Of a stretch of DNA of 64,000 nucleotides, positions 3,875 through 50,182 are shown one piece after another. The stretch is from Savitreella phatthalungensis (taxonomy: Eukaryota), in the NCBI GenBank assembly GCA_051599415.1, contig AP039712.1, positions 124,001 to 188,000 on the forward strand, given 5' to 3'. The notes beneath the pieces are model-generated. The model was not told where the DNA came from, made no database searches, and worked only from the letters and a program-made list of their open reading frames with translations. Position numbers and translations under genes: made by a program. Positions within the stretch are counted from its first letter, which is position 1, and every line of letters begins with the position of its first letter.

Positions 3875-6800
3875 ATGGTACATCCAACGCTCGACACTCC
3901 CGAAGAGCGAGAGCAAGACCCTCTTGAGCGTCTTCTGGCATGGCATCGTGAGAGTCCAGACGCAGCTGCACTCGAAATCGGCAAACAAATCTACTCCATC
4001 GAACACGTTCTTCAACGAGTGTCTGCCATCTCCACACTCATCAACGAGAGCTGGCCCGAGGCATCTCGTGCGGAAGGTCGAGAAGATCGTCAATCTCGCG
4101 GTCTGGACGCCGATGTCGTGGGACTCTGGATGGATCTCGAGCAGGATCTGTACACTGGCTTCTTCGCCTGCTGGGCGGCAGGATGTACGCCGACGGTGCT
4201 CAACCTTGCTTGGCCATCAGACGTGCTCGAAGCTGTAGTGAAGAGACTCGGTATCTCCATCGTCCTCCATAACGCCAGGACTCCACCAGACGTCGACGGT
4301 CTCCGGGCGGTCTCGACAAGCTCTGTCAAGGATGCGAGGATTGATATACTCCAGGGATTACAGCTACCCAAGATCGCCCTTGTCAACCAGAGCAGCGGAT
4401 CAACAGGCACACCAAAGTCGATCCCAGCCGCCACGGTCGTCTACAAGAAGTACTGTCCAGGTTCTGCACGTGCGCTACCGAACGGCACTCGTACTGCCTA
4501 TGTCGCCGCTCCCAGCTTCTCAAACACGACAGCCGGACTCATGGTCGCTGGATATTGCCGCAATACCGTGCTCTACCCTGCCGTTGGCCCAGAAAAGGCA
4601 GACGCGGCGGAAGTGGCAGCCAATGTGCGTGCTCATCTGCAGAATGGAGCAACACAGCTCTCATTCACATCATCGATATTCGGTCTCGCGACTGCGGGCG
4701 ATCTTCCGGCGTATGATGCAGTTCGGAACGTCTACTTCGGAGGCGAGATCACTCCAGTTTCCACGGTTCAGCGTGCTCGCCAGCTTTTCCCAAACGCCAG
4801 CATCACCGTCGGCTACGGCTCCACCGAAGCCCTCCGTGCAGGATTCTCATTCACCCTGCAGGCCAACGAGTCTGCAGACGGCCTCGAAACCATCGAATAC
4901 ACGCCAAATTCCGTTGTCGAAGAGCTCGTTCTCCTTGACGATGCAGGTGAGCCTGTGGAGCTCAAGGCAGGAGCCAAGGGAACCATCTGCGTCGTCACAC
5001 GCGGCGCAGCTGAGCCGTACGTTCGCGATCAAAAAGACGTGCCCGTGGCAGCGACCGCAGACACGTTCAGAGAGACTTCGTCTGGGGAGTGTCTGATCAA
5101 CTTTGGAGACGTCGGCGAGCTGGTCGGTGATGGTAAGCGTCTAAAGGTGTCTGGTCGATCAGGCCGTCGGATCAAGCTGAATGGCGTCTTTGTCGACCTT
5201 GCCCAGCTTGACCATCTGATCAGCACCTCTCTGCCAACCACGCTCGTCAAAGATGCACACACCGAACAAGTCGGCAATGCCATCATCCTCGTCTACGTCT
5301 CAGACACGCAAGACGACGACCTCGTCAGAAACAGAGTCAATGCCCTTCTCTCCCGGCATCAAGTCAAAGTCCCAGTCGCTCACGCAGTCTACCTCGCAGC
5401 GACCCCAATCGCCGTCTCAGGCAAGAAGGACCTCAAGGTTCTCCAAAAGGTAGCACAAGAGGGTGTCAAGCGCAAGCTCGCAGCTCTCCCATCCGTGCCA
5501 GAGGCCGACCCCGTGGCAAATTTCGTGTCGTCGCGAGCGGCAGAGCTTGTCAAGACGCCCGAGCTCGCAGGAAAGGAGTTTCTATTCGTCGAAGCCGGAC
5601 TTGACTCCATCTCTGCCGTTCACCTCTTGCGGGCTGTCGAGCGTGAGTTTGGTGTATCCCTGTCGCCTGCACAGGTGATCGATCCTGAAGCTTCTCCATC
5701 GTCGATCTCCACCTTCATCGCAGAGTCTCGAGAGAATGCAGCAAAGTCGCCACAGGAGAGAGGCGCTGCAATTCGAGATCGACTCAGACACGATATCGCA
5801 GTCCTTGACGACAAGATCGCCAAAGCCATCGATCCAGATCTCATCCGGAATGAGAGCGCACGTAGGCTGACAGTCTTCCTCACAGGCGCGTCCGGCTTTG
5901 CAGGAGCCTTCATCGCCCATGCCCTTCTCACCTACGACGGCTGGCGACCGGGCTGTAACCTGATTGTCCATGTCCGCGCAGGTTCTGCTGCGCTCGGGAA
6001 GCGCAGGGTGGTTGAGCAACTGCGCCGATGCGGCCTGTGGGAGCCTGAGTTCGAGGCGAGAATCGAGTGTGTCCCTGGTGATTTGGACGAGCCTCGCTTA
6101 GGTCTTTCGGACGCTGACCACCGTGAAGTCTGCCACCGCGCAGACGTCGTCGTTCACAACGCAGCCCGCGTTCACTGGCTACAACCATACTCCCAACTCA
6201 AACCCGCAAACGCAGACGCCACTGCCGATATCCTCATTCTTGCAGCCACCACCAGACTCAAGCGCGTCATCTTCATCTCCGGCGGTTCACAAACCCTCCT
6301 AGACGCCGCAGAAGCATCCAACGACTACACAGCATTCGCGACCGCCAACGGCTACTCACACGCCAAGTATGTCGCAGAGCAGCTCACCCTGCGGGCCTAC
6401 CACAGAGGCATCCCAGCATACATCGTCAGGCCAGGATTCATCCTAGGATCCGCCGCCACAGGTGTCTCCAACACAGACGACTTTGTCTGGCGGCTTCTCA
6501 AGACCTCCATCGAGATCGGTGCTCAGAAGACCAACAAAGAGCAGGTATCACCACTCAACGCGGTCTTTGTCGATGACTTTGCCAAGCAAGTCGTCCTCCT
6601 TGCAGCCGGCGCTCGCACCATCTCCAGTGCAACCCCGACCACCGGTGGAGATCTCCCCAATACGGGCGCCGTCACGGCTGGCGCAGGATCTCTCGACGCC
6701 AGACCAGCAGAGGAGCGAGGTGCGCCGCTCTACCGCATCTGGAGAGACCTCCATTTCACCACCCTATTCGAAGCTGCAAGCGCCGTGGGCTTCGACCTCA

Positions 6801-10646: not shown

Positions 10647-12185
10647 ATGTTGCTGTGTGAGGACCCGCCGTTTCTTGACTTGCTGGAAGCTGTGCGGCGT
10701 GGCGACTTGGAGCAGGTGTCCACGCTGGTTGAGAACTTTGGCGTTGACGTCAATCGGGTGGATAAGTATGACTACTCGCCGCTGATCCTCGCCAGCCTGT
10801 GTGGACACATGCCTGTCGTCAAATATCTGCTCGAACACGGCGCCGTGCTCGAGAGAGATACATTCGACGGGGCCAGATGCTTGTACGGTGCTCTGAATGA
10901 TGAGATTCGGAATCTGCTTCTCAAGTATGACGCCTCCACAGCAGTCGACCTCATGCAGCCATTTGCAGCCCACCTCTCGTCGCTCTTCCGAAAGACCGCG
11001 CTCCTGGACTGTCACGACGTCGTCTTCGACGGCAGGTACGAGGCTCACCGTTTCCTGCTAGGTGCTCGGTCCGCACATCTGCGAGGGGTTCTGGCAAAGA
11101 AGGCATCAGGCGGTGTAGGAAGCGAGGCTAACATCCGGATAGGGGAAGGCGAGAAGGACGCGCTCGAGTACCTGCTGAGATGGCTGTATGTGGACGCTCG
11201 CGACACAGGTCTGTCGCAGGGAGAGATGGCGCAGCTCCTCCTCCTCGCAGATCGATTGGGACTTGAAGACATTGCAGACTTTTATCTAAATCCGAAAGAC
11301 CTCCCAAGGCGGGATCTTCGACAGCAGCAATCTCGCAGAGCACAGGACGATATGGAACGGTGGGTGGACGAGGAGGTGCTCGGGAAGGCGTTCGAAGTCA
11401 GTGCTCCGGTTGGAGAATGCAGCGAGCTGGCAAGAGAGGCGTTCAAGCGAGTTGAAAACTCTCCTGCGGACTGCCTACTTGCAATTCCATCCCCTGGTGG
11501 CGCGCTCGTCTACCCGGTCTCGCGTGCGATGCTCATCCGATCAGAGTACTATCTGACACTGTTCACGTCGCCGTTTGCAGAAGCGCAGACATCGCTGCCG
11601 GTGACGACGCTGGAGGTCGATCGGCCGGTCGCAGAGATCGTCCTCCGTTTTCTGTACACGGATAAGGCTGAGATTCCGCGAGAGCTGGCGGTCCAGGTGG
11701 TTGAGACTGCGTCGTTCCTCCTGATGGACAAGGATCGATCGCTGAAATCGCTTGCCGCCATTGCCCTTACCTCAGACGAAGACGAGCTGCCCGAGGGCAC
11801 AGACATCTATGCCATCCTCCGTGTCGCCTGGCTGACAGACACCCCTCGCCTAGAACAGTTCGCGGCCCGCTGGATCGCACACCACTTTGACGCCTGTATT
11901 TTCTCCACCGACTTTGCAGACGCAGTGCTCGAGTCCGCTGGCAGGATCAGGGATAGACAAGAGACCGATACGGTCGAGCTTGTGGATGATATCAGGTTCT
12001 ATCTCCAGGACAGGTTCGGCATCTACTTTGGGCTCGAGAGCGCAGAGCGCCAGAGAGAGATGCGCGGCAAGGAGATTGAGAATGACGTCTTCCTCCCAGG
12101 CGGACTCACCCAGTACGAGCTCGACTATAACGAGACACTCCGGAAGCTCGATGATGTGCTCGGCGGCCTCAACCTGGACGTGTGA
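10647..12185 (+). CDS. Ankyrin-repeat + BTB/POZ Cul3 adaptor (Btb3/ABTB1-like)
   Basis: Ankyrin motif VNRVDKYDYSPLILASLCGH...ERDTFDGARCLYGAL; two BTB segments (AHRFLLGARS; LIRSEYY..LF); RQETDTVELVDDIR. Confidence 0.88.
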   Translation: MLLCEDPPFLDLLEAVRRGDLEQVSTLVENFGVDVNRVDKYDYSPLILASLCGHMPVVKYLLEHGAVLERDTFDGARCLYGALNDEIRNLLLKYDASTAVDLMQPFAAHLSSLFRKTALLDCHDVVFDGRYEAHRFLLGARSAHLRGVLAKKASGGVGSEANIRIGEGEKDALEYLLRWLYVDARDTGLSQGEMAQLLLLADRLGLEDIADFYLNPKDLPRRDLRQQQSRRAQDDMERWVDEEVLGKAFEVSAPVGECSELAREAFKRVENSPADCLLAIPSPGGALVYPVSRAMLIRSEYYLTLFTSPFAEAQTSLPVTTLEVDRPVAEIVLRFLYTDKAEIPRELAVQVVETASFLLMDKDRSLKSLAAIALTSDEDELPEGTDIYAILRVAWLTDTPRLEQFAARWIAHHFDACIFSTDFADAVLESAGRIRDRQETDTVELVDDIRFYLQDRFGIYFGLESAERQREMRGKEIENDVFLPGGLTQYELDYNETLRKLDDVLGGLNLDV

Positions 12186-12368
12186 GGCACGACCACGCCA
12201 ACGAAGTGTACAACCACACGAAGATGTATGACAATTAACCGAAGGACAGGACAGAGCAAAATATGAGACATGACATTGAATTCTAGCGTAGGTGAGTGCA
12301 CGAGTAGTACGCCTGACCGATTCATTTCGTGAGGAGGGCTGGGGCTCGATCCGGTCTGAGCCTCAGGC

Positions 12369-14079: not shown

Positions 14080-16041
14080 ATGAAGCCAGACGAGTATACA
14101 GTCGTGGCACCCATCGGTAAGGGCAGCTTCGGCCTTGTACATAAAGTTCAGAGGCGTCTCGATGGCGCGATTCTCTGTCGGAAGGAGATCCTGTGGGCGC
14201 GCATGTCAGTTCGAGAGCGTGAGCAGCTAGCTCAAGAGCTCTCAATCCTCAGAGGACTTCAGCATCCAAACATCGTCCAGTACATCACAGACGTCGTCGA
14301 CCCACACACCAAGGTCGTTCACATCTTCATGGAGTACTGCGGCAATGGTGACCTGTCCGACCTGATACGCGACTATCGAGAAAGCGGTAATCCGCCAAGG
14401 CGCGTGCCAGAGTCAGTTGTATGGCAAATCTTCGCCCAGGCTACTGCCGCTCTCCACCGGTGTCACACAGGCACAGGCTCCATGACATCCGCTGACGCCA
14501 CCACCGGAGACAATGTCGTCCTCCACCGTGACATCAAACCACAGAACATCTTCCTCGACCACAACAACCGTGTCAAGCTCGGCGACTTTGGGTTGTCGAA
14601 GCAGCTCGGTTCAGGGTCGGCAGGTCTGGCAGAGACGTACGTCGGCACACCCTTCTACATGTCACCGGAACTCATCATGGGCAGACGGTATTGCTCAAAG
14701 TCGGATATCTGGGCACTCGGCTGTGTTATCTACGAGGTCGCTGCACTTACCACGCCTTTCTACGCCGCCAACCAGGAGGAACTGAATCGCAAGATCCGCG
14801 CAGGCAACGTGGCCTCCCTCGAGCGATACGGCTACAGTGCGGCGCTCAACGCAGCCGTCAGATCTTGTCTCGTTCGGGACGAAGCATCGAGACCGTCTGC
14901 AGCTGGGCTGCTGAAGCTTCAGGAGATGCAGCTCGCTCGACAGGTGCTCGACAATGCCGATCGAGAGGCTGCCCTATTGCGGCGAGAGGCGGAAGTTGTC
15001 GTCAGGGAGAAACAGGTCGAGGCTGCGATCCAGGAGAAGCAGGAAGAGTTTGCCCGTCGCGAGGAAGCCTTGCATCGGCGAGAGTTAGCGTCTACCATCT
15101 CGTCGACGGCAGAAGCTCTCTCCCGCGCACTTGACGACGCACGCCGCCAGATTGATCTCCTCCTCCGTGACAAAGAAGCTCTGCAGGGCAGATTGACCGC
15201 GCTCGAATCAACACCGAGAATCCTCGCAGCCACCTCTGCCTCCAATCGCCCTTCGCTCGCGCGCGCCCAGACAGAAGACCCTCTCCACCTCCTTCCCGTC
15301 CCGTCCACTTTCGCATCGGCAGCGACAACCACTTCATCAAACGATCGGCCAGACTCCCGTCACTCTTTGCGCTCCCCACATCGACGAAAGTCGCAAATCC
15401 CCATGTCACGCGTCCGACCGAGCGTCGACAATGCTGCCAACACGTGTCACAACGCAGGAACTGGGACTGGCATTGGGCTAGGTCCACCGAAGATGTTGTT
15501 TGGGGGTGTCGGAAAGGAAGGACTTGAGAACGTACGCCCTCATTCGGCCACTGGATTCGTTGATCGGCAGCCTGAGCACGGTGTCGGCAGGCTGATCGAG
15601 CGTCGATCGTCGCTGCCGAGGGCGAGTCCAGTACGTGACCTGTCGATGAAGACGCTCACACTGGAGAGCGGTCGTCAGACTCTGGAGGATTCCCCGCTGT
15701 CTCCTAGAAAGCTGGCATACCCTTCTCCGTCACGGGCAACAGCGAGGACGCTGTTTGGTGCTAAGCGGGTTGCACCTCCTGCTCCCCTACAGGCATCCCC
15801 TACACAGCCGGCATTCTCCCGATCCAACACCCTCCGCCTCGAGCGCGAGAGAGAATCTACCGCGAGGCAGCGCAGAGACGTCGTCATCCAGACCCAACCA
15901 GTCCACCAAAGACTCTCGCGCACAAACTCAGCAGCCTCTCACCTTCACGACACCAACGACCATCACGACAACGACAATGATAATCACAACGACGATGACC
16001 TGCCTTCACCTTTCATCAAGCGGCAGTACCTGCTCGTATAA
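14080..16041 (+). CDS. nimA: NIMA-family Ser/Thr kinase (NimA/Fin1/Kin3)
   Basis: IGKGSFG, CRKEI, ELSILRGLQHPNIVQY, MEYCGNGDL, LHRDIKPQNIFL, LGDFGLSK, TYVGTPFYMSPE; coiled coil; C-terminal DLPSPF. Confidence 0.92.
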   Translation: MKPDEYTVVAPIGKGSFGLVHKVQRRLDGAILCRKEILWARMSVREREQLAQELSILRGLQHPNIVQYITDVVDPHTKVVHIFMEYCGNGDLSDLIRDYRESGNPPRRVPESVVWQIFAQATAALHRCHTGTGSMTSADATTGDNVVLHRDIKPQNIFLDHNNRVKLGDFGLSKQLGSGSAGLAETYVGTPFYMSPELIMGRRYCSKSDIWALGCVIYEVAALTTPFYAANQEELNRKIRAGNVASLERYGYSAALNAAVRSCLVRDEASRPSAAGLLKLQEMQLARQVLDNADREAALLRREAEVVVREKQVEAAIQEKQEEFARREEALHRRELASTISSTAEALSRALDDARRQIDLLLRDKEALQGRLTALESTPRILAATSASNRPSLARAQTEDPLHLLPVPSTFASAATTTSSNDRPDSRHSLRSPHRRKSQIPMSRVRPSVDNAANTCHNAGTGTGIGLGPPKMLFGGVGKEGLENVRPHSATGFVDRQPEHGVGRLIERRSSLPRASPVRDLSMKTLTLESGRQTLEDSPLSPRKLAYPSPSRATARTLFGAKRVAPPAPLQASPTQPAFSRSNTLRLERERESTARQRRDVVIQTQPVHQRLSRTNSAASHLHDTNDHHDNDNDNHNDDDLPSPFIKRQYLLV

Positions 16042-16860: not shown

Positions 16861-18486
16861 TTAGCCGCGCTTGCAACCGTCGTGCAGGCCACCCACGTGA
16901 CCATTGTACAGGGCGACATCGTCCATGGCAGCCTGCTCAATGCCAGAGTCCGATTTGGCGACCTTGCCAGCTCCAGGCCGATGGCGGCTCGCTTCTAGCT
17001 TGTCTAGGGTGTCGCTGTCGACGCCGGAGATGTACGTGCCCGAGAAGACGCCGACCTCGAATGTGGTGACGTTCGGGTTGCTGCACTCCTCCAGACACGC
17101 GTGGACGAGGTCGTCGAGTTCCTGGTAGATGACTTTGTCTGCACCAATCGCCCTCGAGATCTCATCGTGGGTGCGGTCGTGGGCGACGAGGTCTGCCCTG
17201 TCCGCGAGATCGATGCCGTAGATGTGGTTGTGGCGGATAGGTGGTGCGCAGGAGGCAAAGTATACTTTTACAGCTCCAGCATCACGCGCCATCTGCACAA
17301 TCTCCTTCGACGTCGTTCCGCGCACAATCGAGTCGTCCACGATCAACACAGACTTCCCTCGGAACTCCTGCGCCTGCGCATTCAGCTTCCGTCGGACATT
17401 CTGTCGGCGGACCTGCTGACCAGGCATGATGAAGGTTCTGCCAACATACCGGTTCTTGATAAATCCTTCCTTGTAGTTCAGCCCGAGATACTGGGCCAGC
17501 TCGAGCGCGGAATTCCGGGATGTGTCTGGTACTGGGACAACGACATCGATAAGGGACTTGTACTCTGGACCGAGTGCCTTGACGACCTGTCCCGCGAGTT
17601 TGATCCCCATCGCCAGCCGCGACCGGTAGACGGAGATGCCATCCATGATGGAATCTGGTCTGGCGAAATACACGTACTCGAAGATGTCTGGCGAGTAGCT
17701 CTGTGCTGGAACGACCTGACGGGGTGTCACGACAGGGTCGAATCGGCCTGTTTCTGGGGATGGCTGCTTGCGTTGGCGGACGATGATGCACTCGCCAGGC
17801 AACACGTCGCGCACATCGGTGTATCCGAGCTGCGAAAGCACCACGCTCTCGGACGCAAACATGTAGTCCTTTCCAAATCTCGTCTCCCGGGAACCCAAAA
17901 CAAGCGGCCTGATACCATGCGGATCTCTGAATCCGAGAATTCCAAACCCAGCCAGCATTGCCACACATGCATATCCGCCTGCACACATGCCGTACATCCT
18001 GCCAAGTGCGGTGAACAAGTCCTCCTCGTTGATGCGGACCTTGTCTGTGTCTGCGAGGAAGGAGGCAAAGATGTTGAGGAGGACCTCTGAGTCGGAGTCC
18101 GTGTTGACATGGCGATGTGCGGTCTGGTCGAGGTACGCCTTGAGCTCGGGTGTGTTGACCAGGTTGCCGTTGTGTGCGAAGGAGATGCCGTAGGGTGAGT
18201 TGACGTAGAATGGTTGTGCTTCTGAATTTGCGCTGCTTCCGGCAGTCGGATACCGCAGATGCGCGATACCCATATTCCCGATCAAGCCCTGCATCACTGT
18301 CGGCCCGCCAAACACGTTCGCCACCATACCGTTGCCCTTGACCTGGTAGAACCGACCGCGAGGACCACACGTGACCATACCAGCCGCGTCCTGGCCCCGG
18401 TGCTGCGCAATGTACAGACCTTCCGAGAGATCCGCACAGGCAAAGCCCTCGGGATTAGCGACCACGCATCCAAGAATGCCACACAT
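16861..18486 (-). CDS. ADE4: Amidophosphoribosyltransferase
   Basis: MCGILG N-terminal nucleophile Cys, QHRGQDAAG, HLRYPTAG, HNGN, DIFEYVYFARPDS, PRPP motif VLIVDDSIVRGTTS. A 5'-UTR intron 18487-18650 (GTATGT...ACTGAC...CAG) ends directly at the ATG. Confidence 0.97.
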   Translation of the reverse strand: MCGILGCVVANPEGFACADLSEGLYIAQHRGQDAAGMVTCGPRGRFYQVKGNGMVANVFGGPTVMQGLIGNMGIAHLRYPTAGSSANSEAQPFYVNSPYGISFAHNGNLVNTPELKAYLDQTAHRHVNTDSDSEVLLNIFASFLADTDKVRINEEDLFTALGRMYGMCAGGYACVAMLAGFGILGFRDPHGIRPLVLGSRETRFGKDYMFASESVVLSQLGYTDVRDVLPGECIIVRQRKQPSPETGRFDPVVTPRQVVPAQSYSPDIFEYVYFARPDSIMDGISVYRSRLAMGIKLAGQVVKALGPEYKSLIDVVVPVPDTSRNSALELAQYLGLNYKEGFIKNRYVGRTFIMPGQQVRRQNVRRKLNAQAQEFRGKSVLIVDDSIVRGTTSKEIVQMARDAGAVKVYFASCAPPIRHNHIYGIDLADRADLVAHDRTHDEISRAIGADKVIYQELDDLVHACLEECSNPNVTTFEVGVFSGTYISGVDSDTLDKLEASRHRPGAGKVAKSDSGIEQAAMDDVALYNGHVGGLHDGCKRG

Positions 18487-18542
18487 CTGAATGAAGAAGA
18501 AGGTCAGTGAATGTCCCAAATCGAGGGAATAGGAACGAATAG

Positions 18543-18619
18543 AAAGCTCAGCTCGGAAAATAGTTGTCTCTGATATGTGTGACAGAGTAGTCTAACATCT
18601 GATTGAGCATCATCGCCTC
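18543..18619 (-). ncRNA. Intronic box C/D snoRNA, snR58/SNORD104-like guide for LSU rRNA (yeast Cm663 equivalent)
   Basis: Box C AUGAUGC (18613-18607); 12-nt guide AGAUGUUAGACU (18600-18589) complementary to the fungal LSU sequence AGUCUAACAUCU as recalled; degenerate D' CUCU; box D CUGA (18551-18548); terminal stem GAGGC/GCUUU; ~45 nt upstream of the branch point. Confidence 0.72.
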
Positions 18620-19054
18620 GTCCGCAGGATCTTGAGGTGGTAGAACATACCTTGAGTTAGAGAGAGCGCGCGCGACTCCGGTGCTCTAGTGAATGGAGCT
18701 GCCTCGAAGGCTCTGTTCGATAGCGTGCCAGACGCAGATGACCTCGTACAGCCTGTCCTGCGTTCTGTACTATACGCTCTGGACCGCACTAGCTCACTAC
18801 TATCTCCGTACCAGGTCTGTTGTTGTACGACCCTAGTACAGTGAGTACAAGAAAATGAAAAACGGAAAGAAAAAAAAATTAAGATGAGATTGATCAAACA
18901 CGTGATTGATAATAATCTTCTACTTTCAACCTCGCACATGCATTCCGAGTCAGAAGTGGCTGTTTGTGGCAAAGTACAACGGCTCCATCAGAGGTTACGA
19001 CAACATCATCGGTGACGTATAACTCCAAGAGTTCTAGTGACGAGCAAGCAATCT

Positions 19055-19541
19055 ATGGATGATGAGCTAGGTAAACAAGTTCGTCAGTCAGCAGAAAAGA
19101 CTCACAAAGTACTTGAGGAATGTGCGCATCAGGTCGAGCATGAGTACAACGCTTTCCTCGTGCGATTAGCCCACCGCGTTGATCAGGTGAGTATACCATG
19201 ATACCCCAGATCATAGACAGCATGCTGACGTCAGCTCGCTCGGCAATCGCTCCTAGCAGCACAGTACCAAGCTCAGGAAGCGGAATCACTCTCAGGCCAG
19301 CTAGACCGCAGGTCAGATGCGCTCGAGATGACCCTCAGCACGGCCCGTCAATTGCAGCAGGAATTTCGAGACTTTGAGACGTTGTCCCAGGAATGGTGAG
19401 CGGGACACTAAGCATTCTTGCAGAACACCTCTCGTATCTCGAGGCTGACCACTGTGCAGTGACTTGCTATCGAGGAGGCTGGTAGATGTCGAGCGTGCGA
19501 TGGATAGGCTCAAATCCACGGGGCGGAGTTCGATGCGGTGA
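19055..19541 (+). CDS. Three-exon 124-aa coiled-coil protein (possibly a BLOC-1/BORC subunit such as Cnl1); exons 19055-19186, 19235-19395, 19460-19541
   Basis: Two canonical introns (GTGAGT..GCTGAC..CAG, 48 nt; GTGAGC..GCTGAC..CAG, 64 nt) join an open frame MDDELGKQVRQ...DLLSRRLVDVERAMDRLKSTGRSSMR. The family call is tentative. Confidence 0.75.
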
Positions 19542-20283: not shown

Positions 20284-21210
20284 ATGTCTTCCATCAATGT
20301 CAGCACTATCTCAAACGCCATCGCTCAGGCGAACCTTGCTACTGTCGCCGCTACCGCCGCGGCCGTTGCTCAAGCCAAGGCTCAGGGAGTCTCTTGCAAG
20401 GTCATCGCCAGGCAGGTGCAGCACATGGCTGCCAAGTCGCAGTCCAAGATCCCAATCAAGGCTGAGCCGATGCCCATCAAGCAGCAGCCACAGCAACAGA
20501 AGCGCCCCTACCGCTCGACCTTCACCGAGCTCTTCGACAATGCTGAACTTGCTGTCGCTGCAGCCAACACTCTCTCGCTGCCACCGATTCTCGCGTACCA
20601 GCCGGACAACATCACACCGAAGCTCAGCGCTGCTGTTCGCCGATCTGCAGAGCTTGACCCACGCTCCGTCCCACCAATTCTCCTGATTGGCGACAACGCC
20701 TACCTCCGTCCTCGGCCGGCCAAGCAAACTTCGAAGCTCCCAAAGCTCAAGGGCACGACGCGACCAATCAAGGTGATGAAGGTGGCGACGACGAACCCTG
20801 AAGGCCGTCGGGTTCCTCCTGGGATGCAATTCGCCACCTGCAATGCGCGTACGCCGGAGACAGTCAAGTCTACGGATGGTGGTGTCCAGCGTGAGACGTC
20901 GGTGGCATACCTGATCCGGATGGAGAAGCCTCGTGCTCGGACGCCGTTTGGGAAGGCGCTGCTGGCGAAGATCAAGTCGAAGGTGGTGTGTGCATTTGCA
21001 CGGAAGCCAGCCGTCTACAGGGCGCCCCGTGATGGAGAGAAAGTCCAGAAGCTGTCGAAGCGGATGATCAAGGTCATGTCGAGAGACCAAGTCGCCAACC
21101 ACAATGAACTCCTTCTCGACCAAGAGGTCCGTCAAGCGAACGAGCGCCGCGAACGCCGTCGTCAGAAGCAGGCAGCCTCTTTCTGGACTGCTTCACCCGG
21201 AATGTACTAG
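20284..21210 (+). CDS. Hypothetical basic (K/R/P-rich) protein, 308 aa
   Basis: Strong C/G-ending codon bias, aagATG context, CATAAAA at ~20176; no recognised domain. Confidence 0.7.
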   Translation: MSSINVSTISNAIAQANLATVAATAAAVAQAKAQGVSCKVIARQVQHMAAKSQSKIPIKAEPMPIKQQPQQQKRPYRSTFTELFDNAELAVAAANTLSLPPILAYQPDNITPKLSAAVRRSAELDPRSVPPILLIGDNAYLRPRPAKQTSKLPKLKGTTRPIKVMKVATTNPEGRRVPPGMQFATCNARTPETVKSTDGGVQRETSVAYLIRMEKPRARTPFGKALLAKIKSKVVCAFARKPAVYRAPRDGEKVQKLSKRMIKVMSRDQVANHNELLLDQEVRQANERRERRRQKQAASFWTASPGMY

Positions 21211-22763: not shown

Positions 22764-24407
22764 ATGGCTACGTCAATGGGATTCAACGTCAACAACATCG
22801 AGGGTGTCACAATCCTCGGCAACGTCGATGCAGCTGCAAAGACAATCCTCACACCAGAGGCAGTCGCTTTCGTCGCACACCTCCACCGCACCTTCAACCC
22901 ACGCCGCAAGGAGCTTCTCCAGCGCCGTGTCGACCGTCAGGCCCAGCTCGATGCCGGCGTCCTCCCAGACTTCCTTCCTGAGACAAAGTGGATCCGTGAG
23001 GACAAGACCTGGAAGGCAGCACCGCCTGCACCTGGACTCGTCGACCGTCGTGTCGAGATCACAGGTCCAGTCGACCGAAAGATGGTCATCAACGCCCTCA
23101 ACTCCGACGTCGCCACCTACATGGCCGACTTTGAGGACTCCTCCACACCCACCTGGGCTAACCTGATCTCCGGACAGATCAACCTGCGTGACGCCATCGC
23201 CAGACAGATCTCTTTCAAGGGCCCCAATGGCAAGGAGTACAAGCTCAACACCCAGCCAGGCAGGCACATCCCGACCTTGCTCGTCCGCCCACGTGGATGG
23301 CACCTGGAGGAGAAGCACTTCCTCGTCGACGGAGAGGCCATCTCCGGCGGCATCTTTGACTTTGCCATCTACTTCTTCCACAACGCACGCAACCTGATCA
23401 AGAACGGCCACGGACCGTACTTCTACCTACCAAAGATGGAGTCCCACCTGGAGGCCCGTCTGTGGAACGACATCTTCAACATGTCGCAGGACTACATTGG
23501 CATCCCACGCGGCACCATCCGTGGTACCGTGCTGATCGAGACCATCCTCGGCGTCTTCGAGATGGACGAGATCATCTTCGAGCTCCGCGACCACTCTTCT
23601 GGCCTCAACTGTGGCCGATGGGACTACATCTTCTCCCTCATCAAGAAGCTCCGTCAGAACCCATCGTTCGTCCTGCCAAACCGTGGTGACGTGACGATGA
23701 CGGTCACCTTCATGCGTTCCTACACTGAGCTGCTGATCAAGACATGCCACCAGCGTGGTGTGCACGCCATGGGTGGCATGGCTGCCCAGATCCCGCTCAA
23801 GGACCGAGCATCCGAGGCCAACAAGATCGCAATGAAGAAGGTGTTCGACGACAAGCTGCGCGAGGTCAAGGCTGGTCACGACGGCACCTGGATCGCCCAC
23901 CCTGAGCTTGGCAAGATCGCGATGGAGGTCTTCAACAAGTACATGCCCACACCTAACCAGCTCCACCGCCGTCGTGAGGACGTCCAGGTTGGCCAGAACG
24001 ACCTGCTGAACATGAACGTGCCAGGACAGATCACCGAGGAAGGTGTGCGGGAGAACATCCGGATCGGTCTCCAGTACATGGAGGCCTGGCTTCGTGGCAC
24101 CGGCTGCGTGCCCATCAACAACCTGATGGAGGACGCCGCGACTGCGGAGATCTCTCGCGCGCAGCTGTGGCAGTGGGCCAAGCACCAGCCCACCACCAAG
24201 GAGGGCTCCAAGGTCACAAAGGAGCTCAACCTCAGATTCCTCAAGGAAGTCACGTCGGAGCTTGCAGCCAAGGCACCCCAGGGCAACAAGTTCGAGCTCG
24301 CTGCCAGGTACTTCGGCACCCAGGTCACCGGAGAGCAATTCTCAGACTTCCTCACCTCCCAGATCTACGACGAGGTCACCACCACTGGAACACCAGCAAA
24401 GCTCTAA
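22764..24407 (+). CDS. MLS1: Malate synthase (glyoxylate cycle), peroxisomal
   Basis: [70 protein letters not shown]-terminal PTS1 AKL. Confidence 0.98.
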
Positions 24408-33219: not shown

Positions 33220-34155
33220 CACACCAGCGTAACCGTCTGGACCGCTGGCATTCGGCCTGGCAAAGCTTGGGTCGGGGTGGGCTAAGGCCCCCGTGTGTCT
33301 CCGCCCTGCGAAACTCGCGGAGACTTTTCGCCCACTGTACAGCCAAAAGGTGTTGTCACGGTGGATCACACTTAGGCGGTGCTCACTTAGAGTGCGGCGC
33401 GGCGCAGCGCAGCGCATTGGCACGATAGTACCAGGATTCAGGAGCCGCAGATACTGTTGGAGGGTAATGATCCCCCGAGCTCACTGGAGTCTGGGAGATT
33501 TTCCATTCCTGCTTCCTAGTCTGGATGCGGGTGACGGGACAAGGTATGCAACGTGGATCTGCCAGCAGTCTATACGGTAGTGGTGGGTAAGTCGGAATGG
33601 TAATTTCAGTCTAGACACTGTGAGAAGCCTAACGAGGTCTTCTTTCTGAATGCGAGTGAGAGAGTGGACAAGCGAGTCTGATGACAGTCGACCGGGAGGA
33701 TTTTCCTTAGGACGACGTAGATCCTGCCCCGCTTTAGAGGCGAAGGGCAAAAGGCTTCGAGCAGTCTTTGACTATCCCTTGATTTTGGTAAATGGAAACA
33801 CGGCTGGCTGTAAGTTGCCATTGGGAAGGATGCTCTGGGGACCTATGATGGTGATTGGGCTATCGGGGCCGTCGGCCTTAGTATCTGTGAAGGATTGTAC
33901 GTGTTCTCTCGGCAGTCAAAGGTTGCGCATGAAGCGGGGCAGCACTCCGAACCCTCTGGTGATTGCACTCTGGCCTCCAAGCTCTGCACTCTGGCCTAGC
34001 TGTAGAACTTTTAAAGTTAGTTAGGGTTAGGGTTTGGGTGTGGCGCAGTATCGATCAAATTCCAGTGAGACTGATAAATTTCAGCCACTGATTGATTGAT
34101 TCACCTTTTCCAGCTTGGTACATTGCCAAGCACCCCAAATTTCACGTGCGCCAAG
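33220..34155 (-). ncRNA. Candidate structured long ncRNA, possibly telomerase RNA
   Basis: TATATA at 34187-34192; template-like AACCCUAACCCUAAC at 34034-34020; multiple inverted repeats; intron-like signals at the 3' end; no convincing ORF. Boundaries are inferred. Confidence 0.35.
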
Positions 34156-34337
34156 CAGAATGACCCGTCATCCTCTGCCACCCAAGTATATACGCGCCTG
34201 TCCATCCTGTAGACATACTTCAATGCGTATGTTTCCGTCCATCGCCAAGAACGCAACCGCCTTACCGTCTCATAGTCCGCATTTCGTCTTGGCAGCGTAA
34301 CGTATGATCTTCCATTCTGTTGTATTCTGCTGCATGA

Positions 34338-49129: not shown

Positions 49130-50182
49130 ATGTCTCTACCATCAATCCCGAACGTTACAAGACTAGCGCCGAATGTCATCCGTATCCTCGGGCAGAATGG
49201 ACCATCGCAGTTCGTCCTTCAGGGAACAAACACCTATCTCATCGGTACAGGAAACGAGCGCATACTCCTTGACACTGCGGAAGGTCATGATGAGTATGTA
49301 TCCTTGCTCAAGGAAGTACTCGAGGATGAAAAGTGTACCATCTCCACCATCCTCCTCTCGCACTGGCATCATGACCACGTTGAAGGTCTTCCTTCAGTCA
49401 GGCAGCTTCTCAAGGATCTCGGACATCAGCAGCCCATCAGAGTCCTCAAGTTCCCTCATGAGACTGACGAGCAGGACTGGGAGCATCTGAAAGATGGAGA
49501 GGTTGTCGAGGTGCAAGGTGCATCGATGAAAGCTGTCCACACGCCGGGCCATACAGTAGACCATTTGGCGTTTATGCTTGGGAGTGCAAGCTCCACAGAC
49601 TCGATTCTCTTCACCGCTGATCATATCCTTGGTGGCTCGACCTCGATCTTCGAGGATTTAGGCGTGTACATGGCTTCTCTGCGGAAAGTGCAGGCGCTTA
49701 AGCCTGGAAAGCTGTTCCCCGGGCACGGCGAAGTGATGGAGCAAGGCACTCGCATCATCGATCACTACATCACCCACAGACAGGCTCGTGAGGACCAGAT
49801 CGTCCACACACTCGCTGAAGAAACCGACGGGAAAGCCATCACCAGCATGGGCATTGTCAAAATCGTATACAAGGACGTTCGCGAAGATCTGCACTTGGCA
49901 GCGGTAAGTTTCCCTTACGACACAAGTCAAACAATCAGATCTGCAGGTGTGCTAAGCTCTCTGACGGGGAGCTTCAGACCCGTGCAGATCTGATTGACAT
50001 CGTAGTGACTGAAGACTGACCAGAAACAGGAGCGCGGTGTCATTCAGCATCTCGACAAGCTTATCAGCGAGGGTCGCGTGGAGAAGCGTGGTGAAGCTTA
50101 CGTTTTGCTTGCAGGAGCAGCAGGAGACGCCACCAGCAGTAGTACATCCCAGAACAAGTCAAAATCCTCTGGAAAGATTTGA
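49130..50182 (+). CDS. LACTB2-like metallo-beta-lactamase-fold protein; exons 49130-49903 and 50030-50182
   Basis: LQGTNTYLIGTG, LSHWHHDH, HTPGHTVDH, FTADHILG, FPGHG, YITHRQAREDQI; spliced winged-helix tail AAERGVIQHLDKL..EGRV. Confidence 0.9.

Follow-up and report, generated by a model that had tools for sequence, protein, structure and literature searches.

The cytidine of the large-subunit rRNA that is targeted by snR58 in yeast (Cm661) has equivalents that are targeted by U104 in human (Cm1327) and by snoR58Y in Arabidopsis (Cm674), according to PMC3511168. In S. pombe, snR58 was identified from cDNA as an intronic RNA in which the guide is followed by one spacer base and CUGA, and its listed target is 25S-Cm688 (PMC4138321). 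In Candida, the helicase gene CPAR2_601470 hosts snR58 in an intron of its 3' UTR, and snR79 lies in a 5'-UTR intron (PMC5033589). The Kuraishia gene probably lies in a coding intron (PMC3879985), and another survey reports snR58 as missing in the Sordariomycetes (PMC5824354).

Among fungi, snoRNAs are commonly hosted by non-ribosomal genes and by UTR introns. The initial annotation of the locus described here had assumed that intronic snoRNAs usually reside in ribosome or translation genes, a rule that fails for this kingdom: 40 of the 44 C/D snoRNAs of S. pombe are intronic, of which only 7 lie in ORF introns, 4 in ribosomal-protein genes and the rest in UTR or non-coding introns (PMC4138321). 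Genes of purine synthesis also occur among the hosts. The pair IMD4/snR54 is treated as a standard one for S. cerevisiae (bioRxiv 10.1101/2022.02.02.478905), and an intronic C/D RNA was described in Afu2g03610, with snR58 not among the names listed in the passages and table consulted (PMC2377427). The host introns of RPL7 and NOG2 are comparably conserved in fungi, and ADE4 is not mentioned in the passages and supplement consulted (PMC8476143). Placement has been explained by a model of constrained drift, in which broad expression of the host is argued to be sufficient (PMC3511168).

The window, that is, the whole stretch of 64 kb that was analysed (G000:C24:124001-188000), is part of a 12.7-Mb fungal assembly. 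The snoRNA found in it is very probably the snR58 orthologue of this organism: a box C/D snoRNA with one guide, located in the intron that interrupts the ADE4 5' UTR, with an old placement, and riding on a housekeeping transcript.

The ADE4 gene and its leader intron

The host gene and its intron are composed as follows.

16861..18486, minus strand: ADE4 coding sequence (amidophosphoribosyltransferase), 541 aa, intron-free, N-terminus MCGI, taken from the ORF list
18487..18650, minus strand: predicted spliceosomal intron of the ADE4 5' UTR and host of the snoRNA, 164 nt, GTATGT...ACTGAC...CAG, with an equivalent in 6 homologous loci
18645..18650, minus strand: 5' splice site GTATGT; box C follows at 37 nt (39-48 nt in the homologues)
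18503..18508, minus strand: branch point ACTGAC, read from the sequence
18487..18489, minus strand: 3' splice site CAG, abutting the ADE4 ATG (18486) at a distance of 0 nt
18651..18720, minus strand: 3' portion of the first exon, which is non-coding, with an in-frame TAA at 18659-18657

The ADE4 product shares 60-64% identity with the named Ade4 proteins of Saitoella, Schizosaccharomyces, Lipomyces and Pneumocystis, and contains the Pfam domains GATase_6/7 and Pribosyltran. Ade4 proteins of closer relatives (P0002-P0011) are 75-80% identical, a comparison made at the protein level. An in-frame TAA is found two codons ahead of the intron GT and ATG is absent over the 289 nt that precede the 5' splice site, so that the 164-nt intron is a 5'-UTR intron; the TAA also rules out that the upstream exon extends Ade4 at its N-terminus. 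The earlier description of the intron as two to three times the local norm holds only roughly when set against the many candidates of 48-86 nt that a motif scan yields in the window, although these candidates are predicted by motif alone. The intron holds a single snoRNA at 37 nt from its 5' splice site, a spacing that fits an intron-encoded snoRNA; in Neurospora 41-60 nt is typical (PMC2780460).

RNA polymerase II would start upstream of 18651 and read through the non-coding exon and the intron into the ADE4 ORF. Splicing would then join the exon directly to the ATG and remove four upstream ATGs, which would leave a clean Ade4 leader. The second residue of the protein, Cys2, is the catalytic nucleophile of Ntn amidotransferases, and the Ade4 start therefore cannot move.

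Many fungal C/D snoRNAs are carried by non-coding hosts, and the RNA could likewise be made from a short transcript of its own, or from a non-coding host whose transcript stops short of ADE4, which would turn ADE4 into a neighbour. However, the 3' splice site lies 0 nt from the ATG here and ~3-32 nt from it in the homologues, which leaves no space for a terminator and a new promoter, and we hold such an arrangement to be very improbable.

The surroundings of ADE4 are ordinary, with a protein kinase that has a long low-complexity tail (14080-16041, presumably NimA-like) and a malate synthase (22764-24407) as neighbours on the plus strand. A divergent short gene, probably spliced, is located at 19050-19500 on the plus strand, with a candidate 48-nt intron at 19187-19234; it has a promoter region of ~400 nt in common with ADE4, in which CACGTG and TGACTC are found. 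The plus strand also contains a 308-aa Ala/Lys/Arg-rich ORF without a Pfam family (20284-21210). Further intron candidates in the window include one of 126 nt with a long inverted repeat AATCAGATCTGCA...TGCAGATCTGATT (49904-50029, plus strand; no C/D features) and one of 219 nt with a telomere-like CCCTAACCCTAAC just before its branch point (34000-34218, minus strand; no guide found).

Anatomy of the snoRNA and its predicted target in 25S rRNA

The elements of the snoRNA are given in the order of the transcript.

18615..18619, minus strand: 5' arm of the terminal stem, GAGGC, forming 5 bp with 18547-18543 (C-G, G-C, G-U, A-U, G-U)
18607..18613, minus strand: box C, AUGAUGC, with C as last base where the consensus has A
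18589..18601, minus strand: D' guide, CAGATGTTAGACT / CAGAUGUUAGACU, 13 nt, complement of the organism's own 25S rRNA
18584..18587, minus strand: degenerate box D', CUCU, in the order guide, 1 nt (spacer A), D'; CUGA or CUGC in the homologues
18567..18573, minus strand: probable degenerate box C', UCAGAGA, placed by fold and position
18552..18566, minus strand: segment before box D, with its final three bases paired to position 7 of box C and to the two bases after it
18548..18551, minus strand: box D, CUGA, read from the sequence
18543..18547, minus strand: 3' arm of the terminal stem, GCUUU, with 2 G-U pairs in the stem

The mature RNA is predicted to span about 18619-18543, with a length of 66-77 nt. 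All the elements named at the outset (box C, box D, terminal stem, guide and degenerate CUCU D', in a 164-nt intron ending at the ADE4 ATG) are present, except that the guide is 13 nt long and the 12-mer originally given was one base short. AUGAUGC and CUGA retain their two GA steps and, together with a 5-bp outer stem, have the composition of a box C/D kink-turn; the terminal stem is poorly kept in most homologues. Position 7 of box C forms C-G with the G before box D here, and A-U in all six homologous loci. The deviant box C base is thus compensated at box D, by a double change that would keep the kink-turn stem.

The internal motif is less regular. D' is recognized as CUCU by position only and is devoid of sheared G-A pairs, C' is tentative, and in the predicted fold D' pairs Watson-Crick with the C'-like segment; the linker between CUCU and box D measures 32 nt. 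The thermodynamic fold itself is uninformative for this snoRNA (z-score -0.04). Most eukaryotic C'/D' motifs are non-canonical, and yeast snR58 is among the few with intact sheared pairs, according to PMC8413462; the ADE4-intron orthologue would thus have lost this feature. The RNA might be a decaying descendant of snR58, whose CUCU no longer positions Nop1 and which leaves C662 un- or under-methylated. The CUGA or CUGC found in 6/6 homologous loci, the possible pairing of D' with the C'-like segment, the off-consensus box C and the failure of Rfam to find the snoRNA agree with such a decay. Set against this, the guide is perfect over 13 nt despite diverged flanks, the change in box C is compensated, and a degenerate D' is no exception, either among eukaryotes in general (PMC8413462, as above) or in this genome, where the D' of snR54 (CCGU) is as degenerate as the CUCU of snR58. 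Decay is, in our judgement, very improbable.

The complementarity to LSU rRNA that was originally proposed is borne out by 13 Watson-Crick pairs out of 13 with the organism's own 25S rRNA (L014:4286-4298, rRNA sequence AGTCTAACATCTG), the rDNA of which consists of at least 12 units of 7557 bp on G000:C27. No longer perfect complement in sense orientation was found when the 85 nt of the snoRNA region were compared with a complete rDNA unit, and the duplex, at -20.2 kcal/mol, is the best among six own RNAs tested. A complement of 13 nt followed by A and CUCU falls within the layout of a guide, for which 10-21 nt with a single base between the complement and D or D' are usual. The fifth base from D' corresponds to the C at L014:4289, LSU position 662, located in GGAGUCUAAC after the CCGUCUUGAAACACGG helix. 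It is the C of GUC that had been expected, and the cytidine of the snR58/SNORD104 family; we take the snR58 target to be Cm663 in the usual yeast numbering. The register equals that of S. pombe snR58, in which guide, one base and CUGA follow each other, so that it is fixed independently. The snoRNA is thus predicted to guide 2'-O-methylation of 25S C662. The guide starts at its 5' end with a C, facing a G of the own rRNA, whereas U occupies this guide position in the homologues; the indication is weak, since G-U is also able to pair.

By analogy with yeast intronic snoRNAs, the lariat would be debranched and trimmed until Snu13, Nop56, Nop58 and Nop1, bound to the C/D kink-turn, stop the nucleases. 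The snoRNA would then pair over 13 bp with 25S rRNA, and Nop1 would methylate C662 on its ribose, at the fifth base counted from D'.

The segment before box D, for which no target had been recognized, indeed has none in 18S, 5.8S, 25S, U2, U5 or U6 RNA of this organism, the set searched. No run of 10 Watson-Crick pairs was found. The best runs are 10 nt with 3 G-U pairs (18S), 9 nt with 1 G-U (25S) and 8 nt with 1 G-U (U2), with none in U5 or U6. Complements of its 12-mer occur 17 times in the genome at up to one mismatch, including itself, versus 24 times for a control pattern. A second guide at box D was consequently rejected, as it has no target among these RNAs, no excess of complements and no conservation; the segment is best described as a spacer, which leaves a single guide, as in the snR58/SNORD104 family.

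The pairing exceeds chance expectation: when the intron was shuffled 3000 times with its dinucleotides preserved, 33 shuffles reached a perfect 13-bp match to any own rRNA. A generic scan that required splice signals, both boxes C and D and a complement of 11 nt to any part of the rRNA recovered the ADE4-intron locus alone in the 64-kb window and nothing in 30/30 shuffled windows. The scan is specific rather than sensitive, since it recovers 4 of 7 other snoRNA-in-intron loci. Seven other non-rDNA sites have the exact 10-mer of the guide core, all of them, by eye, without the box layout, and RF01199 detects no other candidate; a better snR58 was thus not found elsewhere in the genome by these searches.

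The Rfam comparison that had been proposed as a check came out negative: the 64-kb window has no match that reaches the gathering score, and 18400-18800 has no snoRNA match at E<=10. On the genome, the best match of RF01199 (snR58) is an unrelated fragment of 14.8 bits against a cut-off of 70, so the ADE4-intron snoRNA stays below the >=70 bits of curated members. RF01199 also misses the homologues: the Rfam models matched none of 11 metagenome sources of homologous loci, and gave only sub-threshold C/D families on L127 and L108. The models RF00509 and RF00475 (snR64, snR69) find nothing in the genome either, and we read the failure as model bias. A model built from 5 homologues and run on the window only ranks the ADE4-intron snoRNA first (13.8 bits, E 0.0015). 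It aligns over positions 9-40 of 87, and the 3' half of the snoRNA is thus not conserved.

A separate observation concerns the rDNA. Every 7557-bp unit contains a U5 snRNA ~110 nt after the end of 25S, on the same strand (G000:C27; L014:7108-7221; e.g. 4550-4663 and 12107-12220), with 69.9 bits over the full model against a cut-off of 40. All 12 scored U5 matches are rDNA copies (48 of 365 first-look candidates were scored). U2 and U6 have one match each in the genome, and 5S is dispersed, with 8 matches on 8 contigs. A search for a published description of rDNA-linked U5 returned none. An rDNA-amplified spliceosomal snRNA looks unusual, could possibly be cut from polymerase I read-through, and may deserve more attention than the ADE4-intron snoRNA itself.

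Homologous loci in other fungi

Metagenome contigs were scanned with a motif of box C and guide, without any information on ADE4, which gave at least 119 loci. Among those listed, 8 have a D'-like box after the guide, 7 of which also have a downstream CUGA; this anatomy filter was written after the matches had been seen. Tblastn identified Ade4 in 6 of the at least 119 listed loci (L023, L045, L061, L069, L074 and L127), and all six belong to the 7 whose C/D anatomy is complete. At least 250 nt of downstream sequence, enough for a start at 0-32 nt, was available for 116 of the 119 listed. L045 and L061 are near-identical, so the six loci represent five distinct sequences. The 112 listed loci without full anatomy were taken as chance matches; L064 and L120 looked suggestive but failed the anatomy filter. 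A tighter motif gave 3 matches in prokaryote genomes, in bacterial coding DNA and none in ADE4, and 0 in viral contigs.

All six ADE4 loci have a GT donor 39-48 nt before box C, followed after the snoRNA by a branch point, an AG and, ~3-32 nt further on, ATGTGYGG. They also have the same register of guide, 1 nt and D'. Alignment of the window with the homologues is limited to box C, guide, D' and box D. Examination of ADE4 introns in relatives, which had been suggested at the outset, thus yields a snoRNA conserved in 6 ADE4 loci of other fungi, and the objection that it might be unconserved is thereby removed. The seventh locus with complete anatomy is an snR58-like C/D RNA with a canonical D' at L108:247-320 of a metagenome contig, without ADE4 within 571 nt. 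L069 and L074 are intron-rich ADE4 genes on soil-type contigs, whose leader-intron snoRNA has a near-canonical C' box.

A quick Ade4 tree, with midpoint root and an incomplete careful search, was made from 37 rows (33 of 120 listed proteins and four loci; L045 and L127 were too short). L023 is placed with Phaeomoniella among the Eurotiomycetes and L061 among non-Pezizales Pezizomycotina, while L069 and L074 form a clade of their own outside Pezizomycotina and Saccharomycotina. The window Ade4 groups with Schizosaccharomyces and Pneumocystis at weak support (84). We infer from this that the window fungus belongs to the Taphrinomycotina; L069 and L074 may be Archaeorhizomycetes. On these assignments, the placement of snR58 in ADE4 is common to the Taphrinomycotina-like fungus of the window, to Pezizomycotina and to one more lineage. 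It thus extends over three or more ascomycete lineages that are distant from each other, and is hence old.

ADE4 as host and comparison with known systems

A host in purine synthesis is less unusual than the initial annotation had it; the pair IMD4/snR54 was already known, and has its counterpart in this genome. The IMP dehydrogenase gene of the window fungus contains snR54 in a 312-nt coding intron (L167:1853-2164; G000:C7), with 37.4 bits (E 0.014, below the cut-off of 50) and a 13-bp match to the own 18S rRNA. Afu2g03610 we take to be an IMPDH gene as well. Two purine gate-keeper genes thus host rRNA guides here, which is suggestive, two cases not being an enrichment.

The two pairs could reflect selected coupling, which would add to the reading given above without taking its place: snR58 in ADE4 and snR54 in IMP dehydrogenase would link rRNA guides to the two committed steps of purine synthesis and so match ribosome maturation to nucleotide supply. 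Splicing of the leader intron could also gate Ade4 translation through upstream ORFs of the retained intron. The placement kept across distant ascomycete lineages and the occurrence of snR54 in the own IMPDH gene, as in S. cerevisiae IMD4, speak for coupling. So do the four ATGs of the unspliced leader intron, each closed by a stop before the Ade4 start, and the position of snoRNP assembly, which reportedly affects host splicing in yeast. In full, early ascomycetes would have put snR58 and snR54 in ADE4 and IMPDH, selection would tie 25S Cm662 and 18S methylation to purine status, and snoRNP-dependent splicing of the leader intron would feed back on Ade4. However, almost any retained intron contains ATGs, and none of the promoter motifs sought is common to all 6 ADE4 upstream regions. 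Moreover, snR58 has other hosts in Candida and probably in Kuraishia, and is reported missing in Sordariomycetes; its location in a helicase-gene 3'-UTR intron in Candida shows that the ADE4 host is dispensable. The RPL7 and NOG2 introns are likewise long conserved, and reliable host expression suffices. Coupling, whether in its general form or as the full scenario, thus seems unlikely to us, and in ADE4 the snoRNA would rather be a stable passenger of a housekeeping transcript with broad expression than part of a dedicated regulatory link.

The snoRNA is real but, as a guide RNA carried by an intron, fairly ordinary, and its host gene is an old one. No published ADE4/snR58 pairing was found in a search that did not extend to the supplementary lists of fungal snoRNA surveys, and ADE4 is apparently a conserved, unreported snR58 host in ascomycetes. 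The locus adds an unannotated snR58 orthologue that is invisible to Rfam, and points to ADE4 as a long-standing host. Since ADE4 responds to an easily controlled nutrient, ADE4/snR58 and IMD/snR54 form a clean two-gene case for co-expression versus constrained drift. In practical terms, ADE4 promoter swaps or 5' deletions in such fungi would remove an rRNA guide.

The closest known systems compare as follows. RPL7/snR39-59 and NOG2/snR191 show similarly deep host conservation in fungi, in 82% and 72% of species, but these hosts act in ribosome biogenesis and were found from coding-intron data (PMC8476143); a snoRNA in a 5'-UTR intron would probably be missed by such surveys. S. cerevisiae IMD4/snR54 is likewise a purine-synthesis gene hosting a C/D snoRNA, whereas snR54 lies in an intron of the coding region and targets 18S. 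The S. cerevisiae snR58 (RF01199, clan CL00077), human SNORD104 and Arabidopsis snoR58Y act on the equivalent LSU site; in contrast to RF01199 members, the ADE4-intron snoRNA is below the Rfam cut-off and its D' is without GA. In S. cerevisiae, snR58 is presumably transcribed independently and not hosted by ADE4. The Candida snR58 and snR79 share with our locus the use of UTR introns of non-ribosomal protein genes, although the Candida snR58 has another host gene and sits at the opposite end of the transcript, in the 3' UTR (PMC5033589). Finally, S. pombe snR58 (SPSNORNA.17, AJ617328; PMC4138321 Tables S1, S2) differs in its canonical box C and D' and in one guide base, which is changed to C from U; it agrees with the ADE4-intron snoRNA in the single D' guide, the same cytidine, the register, the length of ~75 nt and the intronic location.
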